A stretch of DNA of 10,342 nt from a virus (Duplodnaviria > Heunggongvirae > Uroviricota > Caudoviricetes). The DNA is taken from the IMG/VR virus record IMGVR_UViG_2526164650_000011. The stretch is one strand, 5' to 3'. A program made the position numbers and the translations under genes. Below are positions 6,598 through 6,736 of this stretch, in pieces; position 1 is the stretch's first letter, and every line of letters starts with the position of its first letter. The notes beneath the pieces were generated by a model. That model was not told the DNA's origin. It saw only the letters and a list, made by a program, of their open reading frames with translations, and made no database searches.

Positions 6598-6634
6598 TTG
6601 ATTTTTCCGGAATCTGTGGTAAAATCGTCATAAT
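6598..6634 (+). promoter_or_regulatory. Candidate Q-dependent late promoter PR': -35 TTGATT (6598-6603), 16-nt spacer, extended -10 TGgTAAAAT (6617-6625); -10-like CATAAT (6629-6634) as possible sigma-dependent pause element
   Basis: Hexamers read directly. Location between Q and an intrinsic terminator matches lambdoid PR'/qut architecture. Confidence 0.55.
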
Positions 6635-6674
6635 GATGGGCGTTTTATGCCTGGCGTTAGAAGAGTTTCTACAA

Positions 6675-6697
6675 CCCGCCGCTGAGCGGGTTTTTTT
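6675..6697 (+). terminator. Intrinsic terminator tR' (CCCGC-cgctga-GCGGG followed by TTTTTTT)
   Basis: 5-bp GC stem with a 7-T run. It would end a short leader transcript of roughly 65 nt from the candidate PR'. Confidence 0.65.
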
Positions 6698-6736
6698 ATT
6701 GCGAAATTAATTACGGACCGTTATTATTCTGCTCCC

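Follow-up and report, generated by a model that had tools for sequence, protein, structure and literature searches.

The late-control region of an IS-disrupted lambdoid prophage

The DNA analysed here, hereafter the window, is a 10,342 nt stretch from the IMG/VR virus record IMGVR_UViG_2526164650_000011. It represents the late-control region of a lambdoid prophage, broken up by insertion sequences (IS). Its principal features, including those predicted between the Q antiterminator gene and the tRNA genes, are as follows:

372-1190, 2230-3069 and 9186-10004: transposase genes
4338-5387, + strand: gene for a DUF968 protein
5400-5756, + strand: RusA gene
5771-6592, + strand: Q antiterminator gene, 273 aa, Q-lambda family
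6598-6603, + strand: PR' -35 hexamer TTGATT (consensus scan)
6604-6619, + strand: PR' spacer TTTCCGGAATCTGTGG, 16 bp and ending in TGG, candidate Q-binding element (QBE)
6620-6625, + strand: PR' -10 hexamer TAAAAT (consensus scan)
6629-6634, + strand: CATAAT (-3 to +3), the pause hexamer originally proposed; overlaps the pause element below and is probably not the functional register
6632-6637, + strand: sigma-dependent pause element (SDPE) AATGAT, predicted +1 to +6, aligned with lambda AACGAT
6638-6640, + strand: GGG, discriminator-like extension of the pause element (+7 to +9)
6646-6649, + strand: TATG, matching the TNYG scrunched-pause consensus (+15 to +18); predicted pause near +17 (6648)
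6632-6697, + strand: predicted terminated leader RNA of around 66 nt, from the predicted start and the terminator
6673-6697, + strand: tR' intrinsic terminator, stem 6673-6679/6686-6692 and loop 6680-6685
6737-6812 and 6903-6979, + strand: tRNA genes, tRNA-Ile2(CAU) and tRNA-Arg(UCU)
7676-7865, + strand: match to the STnc100 sRNA family (Rfam, 124 bits against a threshold of 47)
8877-9161, + strand: phage-21-type holin gene (PF04971)

Two inverted copies of one IS3-family element, 99% alike (305-1240 and 9136-10071), flank a 7.9-kb segment carrying Q and the late-control region, whilst the transposase gene at 2230-3069 belongs to a different IS3-family element. The second of the inverted copies starts directly after the holin gene, such that the late operon is cut. 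The tRNA module (6697-6994), which has 88-90% identity to Stx2 phages, starts immediately 3' of the terminator T run. It is preceded by a promoter-like site of its own, composed of TTGCGA (6699-6704), a 17 bp spacer and TATTAT (6722-6727), around 10 nt before the first tRNA gene; therefore the tRNAs may be expressed without Q. This first tRNA is identified by ARAGORN as tRNA-Met, and the same gene is annotated in RefSeq as tRNA-Ile. Between the tRNA module and the holin gene, the STnc100 match has at its end the terminator that scores best in the window (7835-7856); according to a 2026 preprint, the PasD sRNAs of EPEC are structural relatives of STnc100.

The product of the Q gene belongs to PF03589 (Pfam search, E 6.9e-55), which Yin and Ebright (PMC9388147) define as the Q-lambda family. 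It aligns with the lambda Q chains 7UBM and 4MO1 (phmmer, residues 1-113 and 116-207), the alignment being full length except for an insert of around 68 aa at the start of the zinc-ribbon arm, which in lambda Q contacts the QBE and sigma region 4 (PMC9388147). Relative to lambda Q, the insert corresponds to residues ~114-181 of the window protein. With it, the protein has four CxxC motifs, three of the form CxxCxGxG, as in the two-zinc cysteine-rich domain of DnaJ; the Pfam model DnaJ_CXXCXGXG scores 29 bits, below threshold. The Q proteins of phage SfV and of the E. coli K-12 prophage Qin have a shorter version of the same insert.

A predicted promoter following Q matches lambda PR'

A consensus scan of the window found 13 promoter-like sites, where 11.8 were expected from shuffled sequence, and 19 terminator-like sites against an expected 10.3, less than a twofold excess. 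Consensus matches by themselves are thus not above chance, and at this density of sites a promoter followed by a terminator within 100 nt is not rare by itself. The arrangement after Q is above chance because it lies 6 nt after the Q gene, matches lambda PR' base by base and is conserved in 186 loci. All of the elements originally described, namely the -35, spacer, -10, CATAAT and terminator hairpin, are present at the positions listed above, and their assignment to a PR'-tR' unit is upheld by the Q-lambda-family gene upstream and by the match of promoter, pause element and terminator to lambda PR' in both order and spacing. The terminator had been put at about 65 nt beyond the promoter: this agrees with the length of the predicted transcript, 66 nt from 6632 to 6697, but not with the interval between the -10 and the terminator stem, which is 47 nt.

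The predicted sigma-70 promoter identified from the sequence directly after Q, TTGATT-16-TGgTAAAAT, is conserved in relatives, with the -35 starting 6 nt after the Q stop codon. The TTGATT hexamer does not vary among the 89 loci of the 273-aa Q type, and the TG at 6617-6618 (-15/-14) gives an extended -10. In the window the -10 itself is TAAAAT, a single change towards the consensus from the TAAATT found in lambda and in every other TTGATT-type locus. In lambda, the QBE is placed between the -35 and -10. The corresponding spacers are near-invariant inside one Q type and differ across Q types, as would be expected of a QBE, making the 16 bp window spacer a candidate for this role. Lambda Q is bound at the QBE, at the promoter, in the loading complex (PMC9388147).

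Related loci were pooled from a phage collection and complete E. coli genomes, from a set with one genome per species, and from IMG/VR, which was queried twice, with the window Q and with the 250-aa Q of SfV. They were matched to a pattern consisting of the -35, spacer, -10, six bases and nAnnAT-[AG]GG, which occurs at one site in each of 186 sequences (185 loci and the window). Three loci gave no match to the pattern. The K-12 locus was read on the opposite strand, and its cassette is visible by eye; in the locus designated L097 there is an nAnnAT with one extra base between the -10 and the SDPE; and only L015, from Mangrovibacter plantisponsor, is a Q-linked locus truly devoid of the cassette. 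The A2, A5, T6 and GG positions are demanded by the pattern, so their invariance amongst the matched loci is partly by construction; the constancy of A2, A5 and T6 is informative, though only because hardly any Q-linked locus fell outside the pattern.

The pause element is probably displaced from the hexamer originally proposed

From the -10 onwards, lambda reads TAAATT-TGACTC-AACGAT-GGG and the window TAAAAT-CGTCAT-AATGAT-GGG. Given that this geometry is the same as that of lambda PR', the predicted +1 is at 6632, with AATGAT at 6632-6637 as the pause element. Lambda PR' carries the sequence T+14 N+15 Y+16 G+17 (PMC9191641, also the source of the TNYG consensus); these positions hold only if lambda +1 is the first A of AACGAT, and the numbering was checked accordingly.

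The original prediction had placed the sigma-dependent pause element at CATAAT. This now appears to be displaced by three bases, AATGAT being the most likely element because it aligns with lambda AACGAT, is followed by GGG, lies at the right distance from TNYG, and includes A2 and T6, the positions read by sigma, which are present in 186 of 187 Q-linked cassettes. By contrast, CATAAT has no GGG after it and no TNYG at the matching distance. The hexamer in that register is CATAAT in 24 of the 186 pattern-matched loci, and of the other 162, 158 have C or A as its last base. Most of these others have CATAAC, CCTAAC, CCCAAC or CTCAAC in its place, the first two accounting for the majority of relatives, without the last-position T read by sigma. 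Within the window lineage, where the two hexamers overlap and CATAAT is the nearer to consensus (5/6, against 4/6 for AATGAT), sigma could nonetheless use either register.

Of the pause hexamers, AACGAT occurs in 142 loci and AATGAT in 18 (the window among them), with the remainder having AATAAT, AAAGAT, AACTAT, AACAAT, GAAGAT, GATGAT, AATTAT or GACGAT. Variation is therefore found at positions 1, 3 and 4. The GGG follows in lambda and in all relatives except one, which has AGG, and TNYG begins at +15 in 161 of 186 loci (+14 to +17 in lambda). Positions 3 and 4 vary freely, and the natural variants constitute a ready-made mutational series for the study of sigma-dependent pausing.

The same two positions stand out amongst the otherwise near-identical prophages of the 273-aa-Q group (loci L029-L108). 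There +3 is the most variable column between -35 and +45, and +4 the fourth most variable, with AACGAT, AATGAT, AATAAT, AACAAT, AACTAT and AAAGAT all represented. These positions (6634-6635 in the window) are the two least sigma-critical of the hexamer. The polymorphism could reflect tuning of pause strength, or it could be a mutational hotspot.

The terminator hairpin is maintained by compensatory changes

The tR' hairpin, AACCCGC-CGCTGA-GCGGGTT (6673-6692), is followed by a run of seven T at 6691-6697, the last two T of the stem lying within the run. Folded alone, it has a free energy of -11.2 kcal/mol. A hairpin and a run of four to seven T were found by folding at the 3' end of all 73 distinct leaders. 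In 26 distinct terminator sequences sharing one register, 91% of the cells pair, although these rows were selected because they share that register, a choice that raises the proportion paired but leaves the compensatory changes unaffected. Five of the eight stem pairs have changed on both sides, for instance from G-C to C-G or from C-G to U-A. None of 500 column shuffles reached the observed covariation score, and the pairing collapses when the 3' arm is slid by one to three columns. Hence the terminator hairpin is maintained by compensatory changes.

The full predicted leader folds with a minimum free energy of -21 kcal/mol (z = -1.9). In relatives, the distance between +1 and the last T of the run gives leaders of 54-71 nt, with a median of 65. 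In an alignment of 35 leader sequences, conservation reaches 90% or more at 18 of the first 27 positions, whilst in the 250-aa-Q group the most variable positions are +28 to +43. The pause element, GGG and TNYG roughly account for the conservation of +1 to +18, but not for that extending up to the CGTT at +24 to +27. RNAalifold predicts a 5' stem in which AACG (+1 to +4) pairs with this CGUU, accompanied by UGGG/YCYR pairing, with a folding term of -2.4 kcal/mol; no pair of this stem has changed on both sides, leaving it without compensatory changes. The CGTT of lambda is likewise complementary to its 5' AACG, which is suggestive.

The cassette is widespread and composed of exchangeable modules

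The cassette was found in E. coli, Shigella flexneri, E. albertii, E. ruysiae, Atlantibacter, Scandinavium, Mangrovibacter, Phytobacter, Kosakonia, Buttiauxella and Entomohabitans, the hosts outside Escherichia and Shigella all being enterobacterial genera. The Q proteins encoded at these loci have identities as low as 40%, and the set comprises 110 different promoter-plus-leader sequences, with 73 different leaders. A 201-nt query was covered over at least 80% of its length in 1263 of 5426 complete E. coli genomes. The sequence 3' of the T run is unrelated between loci, being a tRNA module, a DNA methylase gene, a gene for an HTH protein, TerB or others; hence the conserved unit ends exactly at the terminator.

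The upstream portion of the unit is also separable from the rest. Similarity between the window and SfV or K-12 Qin extends from 6632, the predicted +1, to the terminator at around 80% identity, whereas the spacer is TTTCCGGAATCTGTGG in the window and TTTTCAAAAAATATGGA in SfV and Qin, the Q proteins of which are only 44% identical to that of the window. A natural chimera (L168, IMGVR_UViG_2565956633_000004) has an SfV-type promoter joined at AACGATGGG to the leader of lambda 6S. This shows that the half containing the Q-specific promoter and the half containing the leader can be exchanged as modules, with the pause element acting as the recombination joint between them. Such modularity fits with the spacer containing a Q-binding element.

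A model for Q-dependent control of the late genes

The elements of the cassette, their homology with lambda PR', their conservation and the covariation of the terminator are properties of the aligned sequences. From these we infer where transcription starts and pauses, that it terminates, that read-through depends on Q, and whatever RNA may accumulate. It is very probable, judging from the sequence, that 6598-6697 constitutes the Q-dependent late-gene control cassette (PR', Q-binding spacer, pause element and tR') of a prophage with a lambda-family Q. By homology with lambda, sigma-70 RNA polymerase would start at around 6632, after which sigma region 2 would re-engage the non-template AATGAT-GGG (+1 to +9) and the complex would pause near +17. 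When Q is absent, the polymerase would escape and terminate at the hairpin and U tract, freeing a leader RNA of around 66 nt. When present, Q expressed from the gene just upstream would bind the promoter spacer, load onto the paused complex and carry it through tR', such that transcription would run on into the tRNA-Ile2/tRNA-Arg module and the lysis genes. Since the IS cuts the late operon directly behind the holin gene, the promoter would in this window yield chiefly leader RNA.

Possible functions of the leader

The leader may have a function beyond being a by-product of antitermination, as a stable trans-acting sRNA resembling StxS, lambda 6S or IsrK. We consider this unlikely, and the same applies to the division of labour it would entail, with the conserved 5' part (+7 to +27) as the seed and the terminator and U tail as the Hfq handle. 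There are precedents in StxS (PMC7547250), IsrK (PMC4825925) and lambda 6S (bioRxiv 2024.10.31.621285), and the layout is like that of many sRNAs, in that the 5' region is conserved, the middle varies and the terminator has seven U; furthermore, the length has been kept at 63-66 nt in most variants despite the divergence of the middle. However, pausing and loading would take place in the same conserved 5' region, enough to account for at least +1 to +18, and the different sequences that follow +9 in lambda and in the chimera L168 are compatible with this kind of promoter. The predicted 5' stem lacks compensatory changes, and many relatives, K-12 Qin included, have only four or five U.

Searches for relatives or targets of the leader also argue against this function. 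No Rfam family matched the leader at threshold: Trp_leader scored 27.6 bits, the alignment being mainly on the trpL-like terminator, and the isrK covariance model, the best non-trivial hit, scored 16.8 bits on the window (E 0.07-0.1) against a threshold of 50, compared with 79.3 bits for the genuine Gifsy-1 isrK. A duplex scan for cis targets within the window found none above shuffled controls, the best on the + strand being -34.7 kcal/mol against a shuffled mean of -33.1 (sd 4.2). An StxS-like regulatory role appears doubtful. It would be something of a long shot to suppose that the leader is a stable, possibly Hfq-associated sRNA made constitutively in very common lambdoid prophages, with +7 to +27 partly kept for base-pairing.

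Were this nevertheless so, the leader would be an overlooked and widespread counterpart of StxS and IsrK, present in at least 23% of complete E. coli genomes and with a diverged copy in K-12 Qin. A literature search, using ydfT/quuQ and the leader sequence itself, found no paper printing or naming it. The Hfq-crosslinking list of Tree et al., as far as it is described in PMC7547250, comprises only peaks more than 100 nt from a feature; on that description the leader, which starts around 40 nt after Q, would be missing from the list. If stable, the leader would enlarge by one widespread member the small group of antitermination-derived regulatory RNAs formed by 6S, StxS and IsrK, and even defective, IS-broken prophages such as that in the window could still make it.

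It is very improbable that the promoter-like site and the hairpin are unrelated features, with the hairpin ending the delayed-early Q transcript and the promoter being either fortuitous or driving expression of the tRNAs. Whilst promoter-like matches do occur at chance density in the window (13 against 11.8), and there are tRNA genes downstream at 6737 and 6903, in relatives the identical arrangement of promoter, pause element and terminator stands before cargo of other kinds (a DNA methylase, an HTH protein, TerB, or no tRNA at all). Moreover, the tRNA module has its own promoter-like site (6699-6727) after the terminator and is common to Stx phages only from 6697 on, and the element-by-element match to lambda PR' is at odds with such an explanation. 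Least credible, and rejected since the frame is not conserved, is a reading of the leader as near-leaderless mRNA encoding a small peptide of 25 codons (ATG at 6634, stop at 6709-6711). There is such an open reading frame, and in one phage record the equivalent stretch carries a 29-aa 'hypothetical protein', but the ATG is created by the pause element itself (GAT followed by G), there is no Shine-Dalgarno sequence, the frame passes through the terminator, neither its length nor its sequence is conserved on reading the loci (two codons in lambda, seven in Phytobacter and over 30 elsewhere), and +11 and +14, both variable columns, fall on the first positions of codons.

Comparison with known systems

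The Q-dependent control cassette can be compared with several phage loci that produce small RNAs. The transcript had originally been described as 6S/StxS-like, which stands with regard to its origin and position but not its sequence, there being no similarity to StxS and only the first nine bases in common with lambda 6S. StxS is the processed PR'-tR' transcript of Stx phages, 258 nt at full length (PMC7547250); like lambda 6S, it is much longer than the window leader. It resembles the arrangement in the window in deriving from a constitutively active late promoter whose transcript is terminated at tR' in the lysogen, and the Stx1 and Stx2 phages likewise have tRNA and cargo genes inserted just downstream of tR'. 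StxS is, however, cut by RNase E to a 74-nt 3' fragment, and its Hfq binding and its rpoS and stx1B targets are experimentally established. In a blastn search (word size 11) of 6540-6740 against 50,697 phage records, Stx phages had no match in the PR'-leader portion, matching only 6697-6740, which belongs to the tRNA module.

The closest precedent in size is IsrK of Gifsy-1 (RF01394), a terminated 77 nt RNA located after a Q gene, with partial read-through downstream. It starts 33 nt after the phage-82-type Q of Gifsy-1 (PMC4825925). Whereas that Q is annotated as similar to the Q of phage 82, the window Q is of the Q-lambda family, and the window has none of the C4/a1b1-type antisense elements that the isrK locus overlaps. 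In Gifsy-1 (L189, 34131-34329, minus strand), isrK overlaps Rfam hits to the a1/b1 C4 targets and has a hit to the C4 antisense RNA after it. The Gifsy-1 PR' leader seems to have been built from a P1/P7-type immunity module.

Several other small RNAs were considered as identities for the leader and rejected. The equal length of HnrS (EcOnc10-12; 66 nt, PMC13502914), a prophage sRNA present in multiple copies, was tempting, but it was rejected by location: by the coordinates of the Tree 2014 supplement, EcOnc10 in Sakai Sp12 lies between the DNase/terminase and Rz endopeptidase genes, on the opposite strand and not after Q. PasA (85 or 236 nt) is convergent with its neighbouring genes and again not after Q, and PasD (~172 nt) is related to STnc100, making it relevant to 7676-7865 instead; PasC was rejected along with these two. 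EcOnc33 (~71 nt, Sp6) is antisense at the 3' end of a deacetylase gene. The leader has no homology to StxS or IsrK and, judged by location, probably none to HnrS; nor is it a homologue of the Pas sRNAs.

Homologous pause elements, leaders and terminators are instead found in K-12 Qin, following ydfT (quuQ), and in SfV, the record of which annotates the terminator. The Qin copy is predicted to extend from 1,642,422 to about 1,642,360 on the minus strand of NC_000913.3, and its terminator has only four U. A DUF968 gene precedes Q in the window, Qin and SfV alike, with rusA between the two in the window but absent from Qin and SfV. The latter pair also differ in having the 250-aa form of Q and the promoter TTGCAT-17-TAAGAT or TAAAAT.

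Lambda itself has the PR'-QBE-SDPE-tR' region, with which the window shares the PF03589 family of Q and the order and spacing of the -35, -10, six-base gap, nAnnAT and GGG. Both also have the TNYG pause motif and an intrinsic terminator ahead of the late genes. The first nine transcribed bases are identical to those of lambda in most relatives (AACGATGGG), and eight of the nine are in the window. Differences are apparent on either side of this sequence. Lambda PR' has TTGACT and a 17 bp spacer, compared with TTGATT and 16 bp in the window, and the spacer sequence differs too, implying a different Q specificity. The window also has a true extended -10, a TNYG motif one base further downstream, and a Q with around 68 additional aa in the arm, whilst the -35-like TTGACT used by sigma region 4 just upstream of the lambda pause element is weak in the window (TCGTCA, 3/6). 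Lambda 6S, a 194 nt Hfq-bound RNA present in lysogens (bioRxiv 2024.10.31.621285), has no similarity to the 66 nt leader of the window past +9, and its orf-64 has no equivalent there. The cassette is a very common member of a textbook class, ordinary in kind, and the base-level coordinates of its predicted start site, pause element and terminator settle how the late-control region is annotated in a very common type of prophage.
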